From NCBI GenBank assembly GCA_021323945.1, contig JAJPKA010000018.1, forward strand, positions 162,853 to 226,852: a stretch of 64,000 bases of DNA. The letters are read 5' to 3'. Made by a program: the position numbers and the translations under genes. The DNA is from Pseudomonadota bacterium. Lineage in GTDB: Bacteria > Desulfobacterota > Binatia > Binatales > Binataceae. Positions 6,692 through 57,660 of the stretch are shown here, one piece after another. A model generated the notes under the pieces. It saw only the letters and a list, made by a program, of their open reading frames with translations. It was not told the origin of the DNA and ran no database searches. The number at the start of each line of letters is the position of its first letter. Position 1 is the first letter of the stretch.

Positions 6692-7297
6692 TCAGGACGA
6701 ACCTAGAAGCAGATGCAAAAAATTCATCGTAAGCTCGTAGGTGAGGCCCCAGATAACCTGTTTGTGGTAAAGTATAGCCGGGCGTAGGAGTTCTACATGA
6801 TCGCGCTGCCATCGATGAATTCCTCGGTAGCGCGGATCGGCCAATACCGCAAGAGGCACTTCGAAGATTTCGGCGACCTCCTTTGGATCGGGATGGAGTT
6901 GGGGTTCACCCTTGACGATTCCCACGAAGGGAGTAACGAGGATGTTGGTGCTGCGTGTACGGCGACCCTCGAAGGCTCCGAGAATATCCAACGAATGAGG
7001 TTCGAGACCGATCTCTTCGTGCGCTTCGCGCAACGCCGCACCTAAAAGGTCAGCGTCGCGCTGATCGAAGCGGCCTCCCGGGAACGCAACCTCGCCGCGG
7101 TGGTTAGCGAGGCGATCGGAGCGTCGAGTATAAAGCACCGTAAACTGGTTGTCACGGCGCAGCAACGCGATCAGCACGGCTGCTGACTTGAGTCCGCCGT
7201 CGACGGCTGGACGTTCTACAGAGTCCGCAGGTATGAGTCGCTGCCTCAAACGCTCGAGGCAGGCGTCGATCTCGCAAGCATCTGGCGGCTGATTCAT
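6692..7297 (-). CDS. NUDIX hydrolase, CoA pyrophosphatase-like (NudL family)
   Basis: NUDIX box GGRFDQRDADLLGAALREAHEEIGL, preceded by the LANHRGEVAFPGG motif typical of CoA pyrophosphatases. Confidence 0.75.
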   Translation of the reverse strand: MNQPPDACEIDACLERLRQRLIPADSVERPAVDGGLKSAAVLIALLRRDNQFTVLYTRRSDRLANHRGEVAFPGGRFDQRDADLLGAALREAHEEIGLEPHSLDILGAFEGRRTRSTNILVTPFVGIVKGEPQLHPDPKEVAEIFEVPLAVLADPRYRGIHRWQRDHVELLRPAILYHKQVIWGLTYELTMNFLHLLLGSS

Positions 7298-7440
7298 GTA
7301 GCCTAGATCATCCTTGCATGTCGACAGCTGTGCAAGGATTTAGGCCGTTGGCACTGAACGGTTTGTCCTGGGCTCAGGTGAGCGGAGACCGTTTGATGGA
7401 GTTGTCAAGACAAGGTTGAGAAAGCCGATTAGGCGTCGGG

Positions 7441-8685
7441 GTGCATTTGCGAGCCGTGCGCGAAGGTCATTTTAACAAGGGACAATCGACGAGCGGGACG
7501 CGATATCTCATCGGGCGTTATCACGAGATTACGCTGAAGGGACGTAATCGCTGGCGCTTCGTTCGGCAGCTCAAGCACAATCTCGTCGAAGTCTTCGGAG
7601 ACTATTCTTTAAACCGAATCCACCTGGAAGGCCCGCGAATTATTGTCGAACTGCCCCGTGCACTGACCGATCAGATTGCCACCGAGCGCGCCAAGCTGAT
7701 CTTCGGCCTGCAGAATTTTTCGATCAGCCATGCTGTGCCTCTCGACATAGAAGCGATCAAGCGGCAGGCTGTGGCAATCGCTGCTTGCGGTGTTGCAGCT
7801 TGTCCGGAACGCACTTTTCGCGTCAGCTCACGACGTGCAGAAAAACGCTTCGGCCTGACGTCGATGGAGATCGATCGCGAGGTCGGTGCGGAAGTCAGCT
7901 CAGCGCTGGGGCTCAAAGTGGATCTGGAAAATCCACAAATGACCATCTCCATCGAAATTCTGCCGGGGGTGGCATACGTCTCCGCCGGCAAGATAACGGG
8001 AGCTGGTGGCCTACCAGTCGGAGTAACAGGAAGAGGTCTGGTTCTGCTGTCGGGCGGCATCGATTCCCCGGTGGCTGCTTACCGGATGATGAGGCGGGGA
8101 ATGCGTGTCGATTTCGTCCACTTCCATAGCTATCCTTTGGTATCGAGTGCCAGCCGGGACAAGGCTCGCGAGCTCGCAGCGCATTTGACTCGTTACCAGG
8201 CGAGATCGAGTCTGATGTTAGTCCCGTTTGCAGCTGCGCAACGCGAGATAGTGGCGCGAGTGCCGCGCCCGCTCAGAGTCGTGGTCTATCGGCGAGTAAT
8301 GTTGGCGATCGCCAGTGAACTGGCAGAAAGAGTCGGTGCACAAGTCTTGATCACGGGTGAGAGTCTTGGTCAGGTTGCGTCGCAGACACTGGAAAATATG
8401 ATGATCATTCAACAGGCGGCGAGGCACCCGGTGCTCCGCCCGCTAATCGGTATGGATAAGAATGAGATAGTTAGTGAGGCGCGGCGCTTGTCTACTTTTG
8501 AAACCTCGATCCAGCCCGACGAGGATTGCTGCACGTTGTTCACCCCCGCCCACCCCGAAACGCATGCGCGCTTTGACCAGGTCGCCCAGGCCGAAGCAAT
8601 GCTTGCTATGGATCAGCTCGTCCAGCAGGCTGTGAAGTCTACCGAGATCGTGCTTAATGCTTTCCCTCGCCCAACAACAGAATAG
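7441..8685 (+). CDS. thiI: tRNA 4-thiouridine synthase / thiamine biosynthesis sulfurtransferase ThiI
   Basis: YLIGRYHEITLKGRNRWRF (THUMP N-terminus) and the PP-loop SGGIDSPVAAYRMMRRG. Start codon is uncertain (GTG/TTG candidates at 7441-7456). Confidence 0.85.
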   Translation: MHLRAVREGHFNKGQSTSGTRYLIGRYHEITLKGRNRWRFVRQLKHNLVEVFGDYSLNRIHLEGPRIIVELPRALTDQIATERAKLIFGLQNFSISHAVPLDIEAIKRQAVAIAACGVAACPERTFRVSSRRAEKRFGLTSMEIDREVGAEVSSALGLKVDLENPQMTISIEILPGVAYVSAGKITGAGGLPVGVTGRGLVLLSGGIDSPVAAYRMMRRGMRVDFVHFHSYPLVSSASRDKARELAAHLTRYQARSSLMLVPFAAAQREIVARVPRPLRVVVYRRVMLAIASELAERVGAQVLITGESLGQVASQTLENMMIIQQAARHPVLRPLIGMDKNEIVSEARRLSTFETSIQPDEDCCTLFTPAHPETHARFDQVAQAEAMLAMDQLVQQAVKSTEIVLNAFPRPTTE

Positions 8686-52677: not shown

Positions 52678-52750
52678 GGGCAGGTAGCTCAGTCGGTAGA
52701 GCAGAAGACTGAAAATCTTCGTGTCGGCAGTTCGATTCTGCCCCTGCCCA
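52678..52750 (+). tRNA. tRNA-Phe (anticodon GAA)
   Basis: Hand-folded cloverleaf: acceptor gggcagg/cctgccc, D-arm gctc-agtcggta-gagc, anticodon stem gaaga/tcttc with loop ctGAAaa, T-arm ggcag-ttcgatt-ctgcc, discriminator A. CCA is not encoded. Confidence 0.85.
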
Positions 52751-53087
52751 CCTCATGAGTACTGGCTTTCTGGTCTATGGCTTTTCAGCCGGCTCGAGCC
52801 GGAGGCTAGGTAGCGCAGGCGAAGAGTCGGAGCCGGTTGTTCCACCTACAGTCCCCGCATGTAGAGATGATAGCCCAGCGCCATGAGAGATTGCCGGAGG
52901 GATAACGCATTGCGCTGAAAGGCGGCAGTCGTTGGTCAAGTGCGTCAATGCCGCTGGGTACGTGATGCGGAGCAGCTTGGTACGTGCCGATATCTGCCAC
53001 GGAAGCGAGCATAGTTAATCATTTCCCATCGGTTTAAACAGTGCCCGTGACTGTAAGTAAGATGCTCTACCGCCATCGGAGAGATCG

Positions 53088-53803
53088 TCAGGACAAAACC
53101 CCAGCGAGACCGATGCTGCTCGAATGGCCCTCTGTCACTGCAATTTGGCGGTCGGATCTCGCCCAAAGCCGAATACCAATCACGATGACGAATAGTGAAA
53201 GCCCGAGCGGTAGTGCGATTTGGTTTAATTCCAAACCGACCAGCTCCGCGCCGCTGAGAACGAAGGCGAAAATTACGACGGTCATGCCGAGAAGCCGCGA
53301 TGCCGAGCGGGCCCTGGCTTGCCCGGATACAGCTAGGCGCCGAGCCAGCAAAATAATAACCGTCGAAACCATCTACCAACAGCATCCCCAATGAAAAAGC
53401 GGCTCCAGTGACAAGTGCATTACTCTGCCCTGCAAGCATAAGGGCGGAAAGCTGAGAAGTTGTTTCAAATCCCGCCGCCAGCGAAATGCCTAAGACGAAC
53501 GGCCGAGCAATGGCGAAATGCTTTCGACTGATAACCTGGTTAACGCCACGAATGAGCCTCCACAGATTCAGCCCCACCTGTCAAGACCAAGGACTAAAGT
53601 CCCAGAAACGCAAACCTAATTGGCGAGGACCCTTCCTATGCCGATGGCTAAAGAATCACAACCAGGCCTTGACCCAGGGCGAAGAAAAGGCCGTTGCTGA
53701 CACGAGGGCGAATGCGCGCGAGACCGTTAATGGCGGCCAAGTGATCGGAGTCAGTGCCCTGGCGCATGCCTAAAGCGAAGGCCACGATTATTACGGCATT
53801 CAT
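53088..53803 (-). pseudogene. Disrupted NicO/RcnA/NhlF-family nickel/cobalt transporter (in-frame stop plus at least one frameshift)
   Basis: Hand translation of the minus strand from ATG 53803 gives MNAVIIVAFALGMRQGTDSDHLAAINGLARIRPRVSNGLFFALGQGLVVIL*, which carries the NicO HxxDADH-type motif. Downstream fragments in two other frames carry GFETTSQLSAL (compare GLGFDTATE) and LLVDGFDG. The annotated ORFs 52945-53577 and 53088-53372 are pieces of this gene. Confidence 0.55.
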
Positions 53804-53974
53804 GTGTCGACTGGGAGTTATGCTCGGACGCCAGCGTCGCCCAAAAGATTCAACTGATGCGACTCGCCAGCGCCGTGGCTGCGCCTGCAGGGGAATGAAG
53901 ACTGAGAAAAAATTACTGCGTCCTCACCGTCCGGTAGATGGCCGGGTTGTTCATTTCTTGGCTGTCGAGACTTC

Positions 53975-54328
53975 CTAAACTGCCTCAAGCCGTGCCCTCA
54001 CGGCACGCATGCGCTGGGCAAGATCGGTTTCACTTACCAGACCGCGGCTCAGCATGACGTGAACCAATGCGAGCAGCTGACGCTCTGGTGCAGGAACGTC
54101 GCGATAGACAGTCTCCCCGAGCTCATCTTCGGCCCGGCGCCAGTCGAGTAGCGGAAGAACGCCATTGGCCACGAGACAGTCGCACATGGCTGTGAGGCTT
54201 GTTTTCCACGGTGGATTCGGGTTGGTAACTCCGTAACGTGGCGCAAGGGTCTTCCAGGTTTTGTCCTGGTTACGGAGAGCCTCGAGCAACTGAAACGGGC
54301 CCCGTTCGACGTCGTCCTTGTCGCTCAT
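53975..54328 (-). CDS. Putative nitrile hydratase/thiocyanate hydrolase accessory (activator, P15K-like) protein
   Basis: 117 aa from ATG 54328 (MSDKDDVERGPF...), GGGAGA SD 7 nt upstream, 20 nt after the alpha-subunit stop, same strand. The assignment rests on position and size only. Confidence 0.35.
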   Translation of the reverse strand: MSDKDDVERGPFQLLEALRNQDKTWKTLAPRYGVTNPNPPWKTSLTAMCDCLVANGVLPLLDWRRAEDELGETVYRDVPAPERQLLALVHVMLSRGLVSETDLAQRMRAVRARLEAV

Positions 54329-54347
54329 CGATATTTCTCCCTTAGCG

Positions 54348-55064
54348 TTAAGAACGTTGGACCGGTCGGCGTGCCTTCTGAACTGGATGGACGTCTGCGG
54401 TCCTGCCTGGCCGTGGCAGGGCGACGCCAATCATGCAGTCGCGCGTGACGATGGCCGCCAACTGCTCTTCGGTCCAATTCTCAGTGCCTTCGGGACGCAT
54501 GGGGAGGACCATGAAGCGGCATTTCTGATTGGAATCCTCGACCCGTATCTCAACCTCAGGAGGGAGTATCAGACCGAACTCGGCGAGTACCTGGCGGGGC
54601 CAGCGGACCAGCCGCCGTCGGTAATTTGTTGTACGATACCATTCGGGCGACATCCCGAGCAGCGGGCGTGGATAACACGAACAGAGTGTGCAAACGATCA
54701 CATGATGCAGCGTTGGAGTGTCCTCGAGGACGCGCAGGTTCATATAGTCGCTGGGAGTGCCGAAGCCGGTAGGCTCAGCCCAATCGATCCCGATCTCTTT
54801 GCAGGCTTTAACCGCGTCCTCCAGTAGACGTTTTTTAAAAGCAGGATCGGTCCACGCTTTAGCAACCAACCGGGAACCTGCGGCGGGCCCAATCGACTCA
54901 GCCCATTCAGTAAATCTCCGATGGTCCTCGGCCGTAAAAAGGCCGTGCTCAATTGCAAGCTCGCGCACCGCAATTTCGAGAACCTCGAAGTCGGTTATTT
55001 CTTCCACCATCGGCGCAGCGGGATGGTCGCCCCCGCCATCCCCAGGCGAGTGTGTATGGCTCAT
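54348..55064 (-). CDS. Nitrile hydratase alpha subunit (cobalt type) / thiocyanate hydrolase gamma-like subunit
   Basis: Metal-binding motif VIVCTLCSCYPRPLLG (Co-type CTLCSC, with Thr and Tyr) and conserved flanking NHase-alpha regions. Confidence 0.85.
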   Translation of the reverse strand: MSHTHSPGDGGGDHPAAPMVEEITDFEVLEIAVRELAIEHGLFTAEDHRRFTEWAESIGPAAGSRLVAKAWTDPAFKKRLLEDAVKACKEIGIDWAEPTGFGTPSDYMNLRVLEDTPTLHHVIVCTLCSCYPRPLLGMSPEWYRTTNYRRRLVRWPRQVLAEFGLILPPEVEIRVEDSNQKCRFMVLPMRPEGTENWTEEQLAAIVTRDCMIGVALPRPGRTADVHPVQKARRPVQRS

Positions 55065-55093
55065 GATCTTACTTCCTTTCCATTTCGCTCCGG

Positions 55094-55420
55094 TCAGCTA
55101 TCGACCGGCTCAAGCCAGCGCTCGGGAGATTCGGTCTGAAGCGAGTCGTTTTCGAACGGGTATTCAGGCCAGAGATCCTTCTGCCGGAAGCGTACGATGT
55201 AGTATTGTTCCAGCCGGCCGTCCCGATTGAAGGCCTCATCTTCGGGGAGAACGTCCTGATAGGTTAATGCTGCGATTGTGCCCACTGCGCCACGGACATA
55301 CATTTGCGTGCGGCTGTAGAACAGGTTCGGCAGGTCCTTGACGCGCACGCGGTCGCCGACCTTGAAACGAGCCTCGACCGCCCTCGTACGGTTTTTTGCT
55401 GAAGGCTTATTGCTTGGCAT
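55094..55420 (-). CDS. Nitrile hydratase beta subunit, C-terminal half as separate gene (SCNase alpha-like / ToyK/L-like)
   Basis: ARFKVGDRVRVKDLP...YVRGAVGTIAALTY is the SH3-like C-terminal barrel of NHase beta. Its start overlaps the stop of the upstream gene by 14 nt. Confidence 0.75.
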   Translation of the reverse strand: MPSNKPSAKNRTRAVEARFKVGDRVRVKDLPNLFYSRTQMYVRGAVGTIAALTYQDVLPEDEAFNRDGRLEQYYIVRFRQKDLWPEYPFENDSLQTESPERWLEPVDS

Positions 55421-55833
55421 AGCGGGCTTTCACCTCGGCGATCTTTTCGATCAGTTCCGTCAATGACACATGGTTTTTATCCACGAGCATTCGAGCTGCC
55501 GCCAAAATCCATCGCCCGTAATAGGGGATGCCGAGATAGAGCGTATAGCCCAGATCATTGTCGGCGCGCCGACGCCTTTCCTCCGAGTTCCAGATACCTC
55601 TCCAGCCAAGAACTTCGCACGTAACATACGTGTTCAGTTCCCATTGCTCCTCCTCCTTTTCTTCATAGACCCCGGGCGCGTCGAATTGGCCGCCAACATC
55701 ATGGGGTGGATGCAAGTAAGCCTTGAAAAGGGCGCTGTCCACCTCATAATTCCAGTTCTGCGGCAGATGAAGCGCGGGCTGGATGGCGCCGATAAGTTCC
55801 AGCTGCTGGCGAAGCTCGTCTCGCACGGCCACT
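55407..55833 (-). CDS. Nitrile hydratase beta subunit, N-terminal half as separate gene (SCNase beta-like)
   Basis: Contains the PPHDVGG motif and helical N-half of NHase beta. Start placed at GTG 55833 (VAVRDELRQ...) with GAGGAGG SD about 9 nt upstream. The annotated 248-aa ORF's first ~105 aa look non-coding. Confidence 0.6.
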
Positions 55834-56296
55834 TTATGGAGCCTCCTCTTCCTCTCCGGCTGAGATTGACGGTTTAATACCGTATTCGACGTTTTTACGT
55901 CAAAATCATCTCTTCTCGCAATATCCGATTGTCGCGAGATTTTCCTGACTACAGGAGGGTTCGACTCGATATTGTTCGTGGCTCGAACGAAGCAGATACA
56001 AGTGGTGCTAAGTGGCCGAAGCAGTAGTTTTGGGGAAAAGGTTCTGTTCTGCGATTGTACGTTCGCAAATCGCAGTCTGGTTGGTCTTTGACCGGCGGAG
56101 AACGCTGCACGACCCCCGCAAAAACAGCGGCCCGAAAATCGCATAGACGCCATATAGGCGTGGATACTTGGCCGACGCCGTGAGCTCCAACGGTTGCGCG
56201 GGACCGGCGCAGCTTGGAGACGCGTATTAGGGTCGAAATATGCGGTTAAGCTGGTAGTCCGCTTACCGCATTACCGATTAGGGTCCCCAGTGCGCC

Positions 56297-56935
56297 GTGC
56301 AAAGTTCAGCCCGCGATCTCAATCGGAACGAACATATGAGCGACGCTGCTATGAAACTTAAAACATTTGTGATGAAGCTACGGTCGCGCGCACCGGCAGT
56401 GTCTTCCAAAGTGATACGGACAGCGACACTCCTCCTGATTATCTGTCTGATAACGGTACCAGCTCATTCACAGCGGACTGTTCCCGCCCAGGCTTTGTCC
56501 GCCCACAGTCCCAATGGGGGTTGGTGGACCATCGAAGATGTTTATTCTGCCGCAAAACCGCTATTGGATCCCGATGACGCTGCACGCGGTCACTTTGATG
56601 CATCGCAAACTCCGGAAACCAAGGCGAAGGACTACCCGGACCCTCGACTGCGATTTAACTGGACCAATGTTTCTGCAAACGTTGGCGCAGAGGCCTATGC
56701 CGCAGCCTTGCTAAATACCGAGTACATGAGGATAAATTGGACGCTTTATAGAGGTCTGGCCTTCGCTTCGCTGAACACCAACTATGCCGCTTGGCTCGTT
56801 GGTCTTTCGGATTCCCGATCTCTAACGAACGTTAACGGGATGATTGTCTATCCGCTTTTCGAAATTGACTATGCGCAGTGGCGTCTGCCGGTCGCGCTGT
56901 GCGTACCACCGGCGCGCGAAAGCGGGGTGAAATGA
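56297..56935 (+). CDS. Hypothetical secreted protein
   Basis: Signal peptide (RTATLLLIICLITVPAHSQ). No domain recognised. The real start is probably ATG 56336 or 56351. Confidence 0.4.
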   Translation: MQSSARDLNRNEHMSDAAMKLKTFVMKLRSRAPAVSSKVIRTATLLLIICLITVPAHSQRTVPAQALSAHSPNGGWWTIEDVYSAAKPLLDPDDAARGHFDASQTPETKAKDYPDPRLRFNWTNVSANVGAEAYAAALLNTEYMRINWTLYRGLAFASLNTNYAAWLVGLSDSRSLTNVNGMIVYPLFEIDYAQWRLPVALCVPPARESGVK

Positions 56936-57660
56936 ATAGGTCGCGGCCCAAAATACGAGGCTCGGCCGCGATTGTGCTCATGATTTTGTGCGGCCTGTTG
57001 CCTGGCATGGTCGCAGCCAGCGGCGATAAGATCTGCGACGTGGCTGCGGATCTGGCGTTGGGGAATGAAGACTATCCTGAGGCTATCCTCTTGCACCGTC
57101 GTCTTCTTCAATCTCATCCTCACAACGCACTAGCGCATTATCACCTTGGTTTTGCCTATGGAATGATGGGGTTGAAGCCCAAAGAAATTAATGAATACCG
57201 GACTTCTGTCGGTCTGGGTCTGCGAAGCTGGGATCTGTTCCTAAATCTAGGCCTCGCCTATCTTGACCAGCACCAAATCGCTCAGGCCATCCATGCGCTG
57301 CAAACTGCTGCAGAGCTGGGTCCAGAGCATATGGAAACCCATTTTAATCTTGCAATTGCGTATGAAAGCCGGAACAGGCTCGTCGATGCGTCACGCGAGA
57401 TTGCGATTGCCCAGCGCCTTGCGCCGACGGATCCTGACATCGCCAATATGTCCGCGATCATCTACGCAAAGGCAGGAGATCGGCAGCGTGCGCATCAAAT
57501 CTGGCAGGAAATTGCACGGCATGCTCCGGATTATGAGCCGGCGGCGATCAACTTGGCGCTGTTAAATGCCTCGGGGTTCTGCGATAGTCAGCCCAGCAGT
57601 CTTTCTGAAGCGCCCTGCGCTCCCGCCCGCGCAACATATCACTTCGCCCCGGCGCGCTAA
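56932..57660 (+). CDS. Secreted tetratricopeptide-repeat (TPR) protein
   Basis: Start ATG 56932 overlaps the upstream stop (ATGA). Signal peptide, then TPR-like repeats (AHYHLGFAYGMMG, LFLNLGLAYLDQHQIAQAIHALQTAAELGP, HFNLAIAYESRNR, IYAKAGDRQRAHQIWQE). Confidence 0.65.
   Translation: MNRSRPKIRGSAAIVLMILCGLLPGMVAASGDKICDVAADLALGNEDYPEAILLHRRLLQSHPHNALAHYHLGFAYGMMGLKPKEINEYRTSVGLGLRSWDLFLNLGLAYLDQHQIAQAIHALQTAAELGPEHMETHFNLAIAYESRNRLVDASREIAIAQRLAPTDPDIANMSAIIYAKAGDRQRAHQIWQEIARHAPDYEPAAINLALLNASGFCDSQPSSLSEAPCAPARATYHFAPAR

Follow-up and report, generated by a model that had tools for sequence, protein, structure and literature searches.

This analysis concerns four adjacent genes on the minus strand of a 64,000-nucleotide (nt) stretch of DNA, here called the window, from an uncultured soil bacterium. 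The genes occupy positions 53975-55832 of the window, in whose numbering all coordinates are given unless a related locus is named, and together they very probably form an operon for thiocyanate hydrolase (SCNase), an enzyme that shares its superfamily fold with the nitrile hydratases (NHases). In the map of open reading frames (ORFs), all four run in the same direction, in the order scnB-like, scnA-like, scnC-like, and accessory gene:

55407..55832, minus strand: scnB-like gene (SCNase beta, equivalent to the N-terminal half of NHase beta), 141 amino acids (aa), GTG start, containing PPHDVGG
55094..55420, minus strand: scnA-like gene (SCNase alpha, equivalent to the C-terminal half of NHase beta), 108 aa, ATG start, containing FKVGDRVRV
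54348..55064, minus strand: scnC-like gene (SCNase gamma, the catalytic, metal-binding subunit), 238 aa, containing VCTLCSCYPRP
53975..54328, minus strand: accessory gene, proposed to encode a P15K-type activator, 117 aa

The genes are closely packed. A ribosome-binding site (RBS), AAGAGGAGG, was located at 55850-55842, with the GTG start of the scnB-like gene 9 nt after it, and the ATG of the scnA-like gene lies inside the 3' end of the scnB-like gene in another frame, which produces an overlap of 14 nt (ATGCCAAGCAATAA). The scnC-like gene follows after a spacer of 29 nt that includes an RBS, and the accessory gene after a spacer of 19 nt. The start of the accessory gene was most plausibly the ATG at 54328, which is preceded by the RBS AAGGGAG; the longest version of this ORF, beginning with a TTG at 54430, was rejected as an over-extension. 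Gene calls made on identical DNA in public assemblies yielded the same four products (141, 108, 238, and 117 aa), and Pfam assigned the scnB-like product to NHase_beta_N (6e-17), the scnA-like product to NHase_beta_C (1.7e-20), and the scnC-like product to NHase_alpha (3e-77). An earlier sequence-only reading of this DNA had described a four-gene minus-strand operon at 53975-55833 with a small accessory gene after the catalytic subunit; the ORF map, the public gene calls, and the Pfam assignments demonstrated that the operon is real, that its range was correct within 1 nt, that its motifs were correctly read, and that the small gene is present (117 aa). The same reading had reported overlapping stop and start codons for beta and alpha, which holds under the SCNase names (scnB and scnA, 14 nt) but not for the catalytic gene, which overlaps nothing.

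The reference enzyme for our comparisons was the SCNase of Thiobacillus thioparus THI115, encoded by scnB-scnA-scnC with P15K and represented by the PDB entries 2DD4, 2DD5, 2DXB, 2DXC, 2ZZD, and 3VYG. Relatives of the window operon were detected in 260 stretches by a scan of species-representative genomes, and the best 80 of these 260 were used as the related loci. They span Binataceae, Alpha-, Beta-, and Gammaproteobacteria, Acidobacteriaceae, Verrucomicrobia, and Actinobacteria, and the closest relatives were metagenome-assembled genomes (MAGs) of Binataceae. The order beta-half, alpha-half, gamma, and accessory gene was kept in 78 of the 80 loci. In 77 of 78 related loci, each beta half had an ORF of its own, 73 of these loci sharing one frame offset, and the 2DD4 crystal structure likewise contains the halves as individual chains, with 157 residues in beta and 126 in alpha. 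Thus, a frameshift artefact as the cause of the split was ruled out, because the halves are separate both in 77/78 loci and in the crystal structure, and the beta subunit is natively split, as had been supposed from the sequence. In the sole fusion among the 78 loci, from a Solirubrobacteraceae MAG (L067:5157-5996), a linker of about 45 aa joins the halves into a single 279-aa ORF, an NHase-beta-like architecture within the SCNase clade. In the window, all four ORFs were intact, of full length, and provided with RBSs, and their proteins were 73-95% identical to those of the closest relatives.

We then compared the subunits with curated models and known structures, for which the NCBIfam equivalog cut-offs are 291.45 bits for TIGR03887 (SCNase gamma), 249.85 bits for TIGR01323 (NHase alpha), and 152.2 bits for TIGR03888 (NHase beta). 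The gamma protein passed TIGR03887, 'thiocyanate hydrolase subunit gamma', with 393.4 bits, covering model positions 1-200 of 200, whereas its 220.6 bits against TIGR01323 were under the cut-off. The two beta halves, each of which covered half of the model, scored 32.5 and 56.9 bits against TIGR03888 and were likewise under the cut-off. The best PDB matches of all three subunits were to the T. thioparus SCNase: gamma matched 2DD4_C (3.4e-107) with 361 bits compared with 226 for the best NHase, beta matched 2DD4_B (8.6e-48) with 165 bits compared with 17.6 for the best NHase beta, and alpha matched 2DD4_A (8.3e-31) with 109.5 bits over 92 residues compared with 38 for NHase beta. In a neighbour-joining tree of gamma rooted on two NHases, the T. 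thioparus sequence fell inside the ingroup together with the window sequence; the former grouped with Gamma- and Betaproteobacterial sequences, and the latter belonged to a 12-member clade of Binataceae and unclassified soil MAGs. A classical two-subunit NHase was ruled out by the curated cut-offs (TIGR01323 and TIGR03888) together with the diagnostic residues.

Key residues were aligned in each of the three subunits. The metal site of gamma reads Cys125-Thr-Leu-Cys128-Ser129-Cys130, followed by Tyr-Pro-Arg133-Pro; its CTLCSC aligns to Cys128..Cys133 of T. thioparus, and the whole CTLCSCYPRP is identical to the SCNase site. Gamma Arg133 aligns with T. thioparus gammaArg136, a position occupied by Trp in the cobalt NHases compared, and PDB 3VYG is an Arg-to-Trp variant of SCNase (R136W) at this equivalent position. 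In beta, Glu-Glu-Arg86-Arg87-Arg-Arg (EERRRR) aligns with T. thioparus Glu-Glu-Arg90-Arg91-Arg-Lys, such that Arg86 corresponds to betaArg90 and Arg87 to betaArg91, whereas NHase carries Phe at the first of these positions (3QXE_B, a cobalt NHase) and retains only the second arginine. The arginine of the alpha YxRG motif, Arg43, is also conserved. Counted over the related loci in which the respective subunit was recovered, gamma Arg133 was invariant in 80 loci, beta Arg86 and Arg87 in 77, and alpha Arg43 in 79, and CTLCSC with every metal ligand was invariant in the alignment of the 80 related loci. The cobalt-type CTLCSC site recognized by the sequence-only reading was therefore borne out, with its complete arginine context on alignment, and the arginines of the beta N-half that it had named as separating SCNase from NHase were of the SCNase type (Arg86, with Phe in NHase).

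In overall design, the operon resembles that of T. thioparus in having three subunits, with NHase beta split into two genes, in the same gene order, in the identical CTLCSCYPRP metal site and the SCNase-type arginines of gamma and beta, and in the small gene directly 3' of scnC. It differs in that gamma is 66-69% identical, the alpha match is clearly weaker (the 109.5 bits over 92 residues given above), and the alpha and beta subunits are smaller (108 versus 126 aa and 141 versus 157 aa), with shorter N- or C-termini. The hosts also differ, the window being from a soil MAG, probably Binataceae-like, whereas T. thioparus is a sulfur-oxidising betaproteobacterium, and the window carries no linked genes for sulfur or carbonyl sulfide (COS) metabolism. 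The cobalt NHases used for comparison included those of Pseudonocardia thermophila (1IRE/4OB1) and of the Bacillus/Geobacillus type (2DPP/7QOP). They share with the window operon the superfamily fold, the Cys-Thr-Leu-Cys-Ser-Cys cobalt site with oxidised cysteines, the beta arginines that hold this site, and a beta-resembling activator encoded after the alpha-type subunit (self-subunit swapping, PMC3511329). In contrast, they have two subunits rather than three, Trp at the position of window gamma Arg133 and Phe at that of beta Arg86, and an organic nitrile rather than the thiocyanate anion as substrate, and the window gamma is under the NHase alpha cut-off. A third point of comparison is ToyJKL, the toyocamycin nitrile hydratase of Streptomyces rimosus, a three-subunit enzyme of the NHase family with a split beta and in these respects like the window enzyme. 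ToyJKL differs in context, as it sits in a deazapurine nucleoside antibiotic cluster and acts on a nucleoside nitrile; no deazapurine or toyocamycin biosynthetic cluster was found around the operon among the window ORFs scanned.

The proposal that the locus encodes a three-subunit member of the NHase family, similar to SCNase or ToyJKL, was thus upheld, and the TIGR03887 score, the 2DD4 matches, the gene order, and the arginines favoured SCNase. As far as a sequence can be tested, all defining features of the three SCNase subunits were present in the locus, together with a candidate activator gene. We proposed that it is, with high probability, a complete SCNase (EC 3.5.5.8) operon, scnB-scnA-scnC plus a P15K-type activator, arranged as a compact chromosomal four-gene cassette in an uncultured soil bacterium. 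Its membership in the SCNase family appears highly probable, and we hold thiocyanate to be the physiological substrate with somewhat lower confidence. The suggestion that the substrate might be something new found no support, as the family is curated and close public homologs are already named 'thiocyanate hydrolase subunit gamma'.

The accessory gene was located directly after scnC in 79 of the 80 related loci, at 47-77% identity. A profile built from 18 members matched the SCNase beta-family profile (hhalign 96.7%, E 4.2e-10, 75 columns) and also matched PDB 2DD4_B at 1e-08. The accessory protein is the counterpart of the C-terminal ~75 residues of SCNase beta, without the PHDVGG part and the arginine cluster, and by these profile matches it is a truncated paralog of the SCNase beta subunit. 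At curated thresholds it belonged to no Pfam or NCBIfam family, and a TIGR03889-type accessory model was not listed at E <= 1 for the window protein or any of 17 homologs; weak nitrile_beta similarity was the only recurrent model match of the protein and these homologs, whose public records mostly read 'hypothetical protein' and occasionally 'thiocyanate hydrolase'. P15K is reportedly encoded directly downstream of scnC, the position that the accessory gene occupies here. According to papers that cite the original work, P15K is the activator of SCNase (Kataoka et al. 2006, cited in PMC5458468 and PMC3511329), and the activators of cobalt NHases are small beta-like proteins that are encoded after the metal-binding subunit and insert cobalt via a complex with the alpha-type subunit (PMC3511329). 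By position and type of homology, by which we likened it to P15K, the 117-aa (~13 kDa) accessory protein fits a P15K-type cobalt-insertion activator and may belong to the P15K family. Its nature as a beta paralog supports a subunit-mimic chaperone mechanism for the maturation of SCNase.

Homology to the T. thioparus enzyme suggests how the window enzyme might work. The gamma subunit would bind a non-corrin Co(III) through Cys125, Cys128, Ser129, and Cys130, with Cys128 oxidised post-translationally to Cys-sulfinic acid and Cys130 to Cys-sulfenic acid. The beta and alpha subunits, as the two halves of NHase beta, would wrap this site and contribute arginines that keep the oxidised cysteines in place, and the extra arginines, gamma Arg133 and beta Arg86, would render the pocket positive, which would favour binding of the SCN- anion over that of an organic nitrile. 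Hydration of SCN- would then yield carbonyl sulfide and ammonia (SCN- + 2 H2O -> COS + NH3 + OH-). The accessory protein would most likely be a metallochaperone that helps gamma acquire its cobalt, much as the self-subunit-swapping activators do for cobalt NHases. The CXLC(SO2H)SC(SOH) site and activator-mediated cobalt loading have been described (PMC3511329), as has the reaction and pathway from SCN- to OCS and ammonium (PMC5458468). For the window enzyme, the metal, the cysteine modifications, and the activity are predictions made from such homology.

The surroundings of the operon were also analyzed, and three further features were recorded:

53145..53803, minus strand: NicO-type nickel/cobalt transporter pseudogene, homologous pieces in three frames with in-frame stops
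55833..56296, minus strand: upstream intergenic region of 464 nt, presumed location of the operon promoter, no element identified
52678..52752, plus strand: tRNA-Phe, Rfam match

Across 6.7 kb, window DNA was 100% identical both to a JGI metagenome contig of 822 kb and to the NCBI MAG GCA_037025025.1, and a second MAG was 99.97% identical to it. The exact window proteins also occurred in public collections, in which the gamma cluster is named 'thiocyanate hydrolase subunit gamma' and the beta cluster '[Candidatus Binataceae bacterium]'. Nucleotide similarity to every relative among the loci L001-L020 was confined to 53973-55856, with 79% for the closest, and no synteny of the flanks was detected with these relatives at the DNA level, the flanks being unrelated. 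Because the similarity stops at the operon borders, the four genes behave as a transferable cassette, which suggests that the unit is horizontally mobile; an extensive history of transfer has been reported for SCNases, in agreement with this reading (PMC10098168). The tRNA-Phe gene lies near the cassette.

Directly downstream of the operon, NicO-type pieces (53803..53145) are spread over three reading frames with several in-frame stops. They are 60-71% identical to an intact 242-aa ORF (L011:7751-8479; Pfam NicO, 5.6e-13), and two Acidobacteriaceae MAGs (L011 and L017) carry an intact 242-aa NicO homolog after the operon. Identical lesions were observed in three independent public assemblies; thus, a sequencing or assembly error was ruled out, and the NicO gene is a pseudogene. 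This gene was probably a former cobalt-supply partner of the operon. In the Acidobacteriaceae locus L011, the accessory gene and the intact NicO transporter are separated by a 155-aa cysteine-rich ORF (7245-7712, plus strand; CRGCCCG...GCLGPC); this ORF had no match in a Pfam search, is absent from the window, and may encode a metal-handling protein.

The neighbours of the operon in the window are the NicO-type pseudogene, tRNA-Phe, UDG, NfeD/SPFH, a TPR protein, an alpha/beta hydrolase, and an amidohydrolase, and the remaining window genes are of housekeeping and cell-envelope types. In Gamma- and Betaproteobacterial MAG loci (L062-L080), the operon has recurrent flanking ORFs that are absent from the window. 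Read by their sequence and not checked by profile, the upstream ORFs look like a LysR regulator and a CynS-like cyanase, a downstream ORF looks like a DsrE-like protein, a three-component ABC transporter is also suggested, and 13 of these loci carry a full-length ORF resembling a NicO/HoxN-type transporter.

Several points weigh against the assignment of the locus as a working SCNase operon. Gamma shares only 66-69% identity with its characterised T. thioparus counterpart, from which the activity of the soil clade is extrapolated, and betaArg90 and gammaArg136 are what we take to be the pocket arginines that set thiocyanate selectivity. The accessory protein matches no curated accessory model, its link to P15K being drawn from position and homology type. 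The adjacent NicO transporter is a pseudogene, and therefore the cobalt supply must come from elsewhere. In addition, no COS hydrolase, sulfide or sulfur oxidation, cyanase, thiocyanate transporter, or regulator gene was found among the 40 window ORFs and the 2 ORFs of locus L011 scanned; Proteobacterial relatives often do carry some such linked genes. Since genes for COS hydrolase, sulfur oxidation, and cyanase are lacking in the window, the gene context would point to the supply of nitrogen and/or sulfur, or to detoxification, as the physiological role, and not to lithotrophic energy metabolism.

The same observations bear on the alternatives to a thiocyanate-hydrolysing enzyme. An enzyme of the SCNase clade might act on another soil substrate, such as selenocyanate, glucosinolate-derived organic thiocyanates, or cyanamide-like compounds, in which case the SCNase label would be approximate. 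In the tree, the soil clade of the window is separate from the Gamma- and Betaproteobacterial group of T. thioparus. The lineages in which it occurs are not known for oxidising thiocyanate, the sulfur, cyanase, and ABC-transport genes linked to the operon in proteobacterial loci are missing from it, and no characterised member of it was found in the searchable literature. However, the pocket arginines and all metal ligands are invariant between the soil clade and T. thioparus, and gamma is well above the curated equivalog threshold, with no sign of an altered pocket; we consider a different substrate highly improbable. It appears very improbable that the operon encodes a three-subunit NHase for an organic nitrile, either a ToyJKL-like enzyme of secondary metabolism or a general aliphatic or aromatic NHase with a split beta. 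The proteins do belong to the NHase superfamily and have the cobalt-type CTLCSC site in common with it, three-subunit NHases exist, as toyocamycin nitrile hydratase illustrates, and the crystallised SCNase variant with a single Arg-to-Trp change (3VYG) suggests that few residues govern specificity. Yet gamma failed the NHase alpha equivalog and passed the SCNase gamma model, both positions that distinguish SCNase from the NHases compared carry the SCNase residues, invariant in 80 and 77 loci, and beta scored 165 bits against SCNase beta but only 17.6 against any NHase beta; moreover, no amidase partner and no nucleoside-antibiotic or deazapurine biosynthesis genes flank the operon among the window ORFs scanned. 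That a horizontally acquired cassette survives here only as a decaying or non-functional remnant is hardly credible. In favour of this view, the neighbouring NicO-type transporter is clearly pseudogenised, DNA similarity breaks off exactly where the operon does, suggesting that the cassette was acquired, and a tRNA-Phe gene is nearby. Against it, the four ORFs are intact and of full length with RBSs present, the proteins keep 73-95% identity to the closest relatives, all catalytic residues are retained, and the same intact sequence recurs in several independent assemblies.

With a SCNase operon as the preferred interpretation, the locus adds little to enzymology, because the family, the split-beta architecture, the cobalt site, and the activator are already established and annotation pipelines recognise gamma. 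It represents, to judge from its proteins, a further SCNase member, from an uncultured soil lineage. No report linking SCNase to Binatota was found in the searchable literature, but such genes already receive a label from annotation pipelines. In NCBI and JGI records, only gamma is named; the alpha, beta, and accessory proteins are mostly 'hypothetical protein' and have no curated equivalog model, which marks an annotation gap for these three components. SCNase cassettes are common in uncultured soil phyla, which bears on soil thiocyanate turnover and carbonyl sulfide fluxes. Only tentatively, and with doubt clearly outweighing confidence, we suggest that the window belongs to a large soil SCNase clade that has spread horizontally through Binataceae, Acidobacteriaceae, and Verrucomicrobia as well as many Alphaproteobacteria other than the sulfur-oxidising degraders of thiocyanate, and that this clade has an ecological role or a substrate other than SCN-. 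If active, the soil clade could give heterotrophs in soil a widespread means of drawing nitrogen from thiocyanate of plant origin, and as a biological source it could contribute significantly to carbonyl sulfide in soils; alternatively, SCN- may not be the physiological substrate of its members.

An Rfam search of the locus and the upstream region returned tRNA-Phe only, with no riboswitch or other RNA element, and in a promoter and terminator scan, site counts were not above the shuffled expectation and no minus-strand sigma-70-like site was found upstream of the operon. Beyond the upstream intergenic region, a divergent 212-aa ORF (56297-56935, plus strand) without a Pfam match or an evident relation to the operon has a predicted signal or membrane segment, and the TPR protein (56878-57660) follows it.

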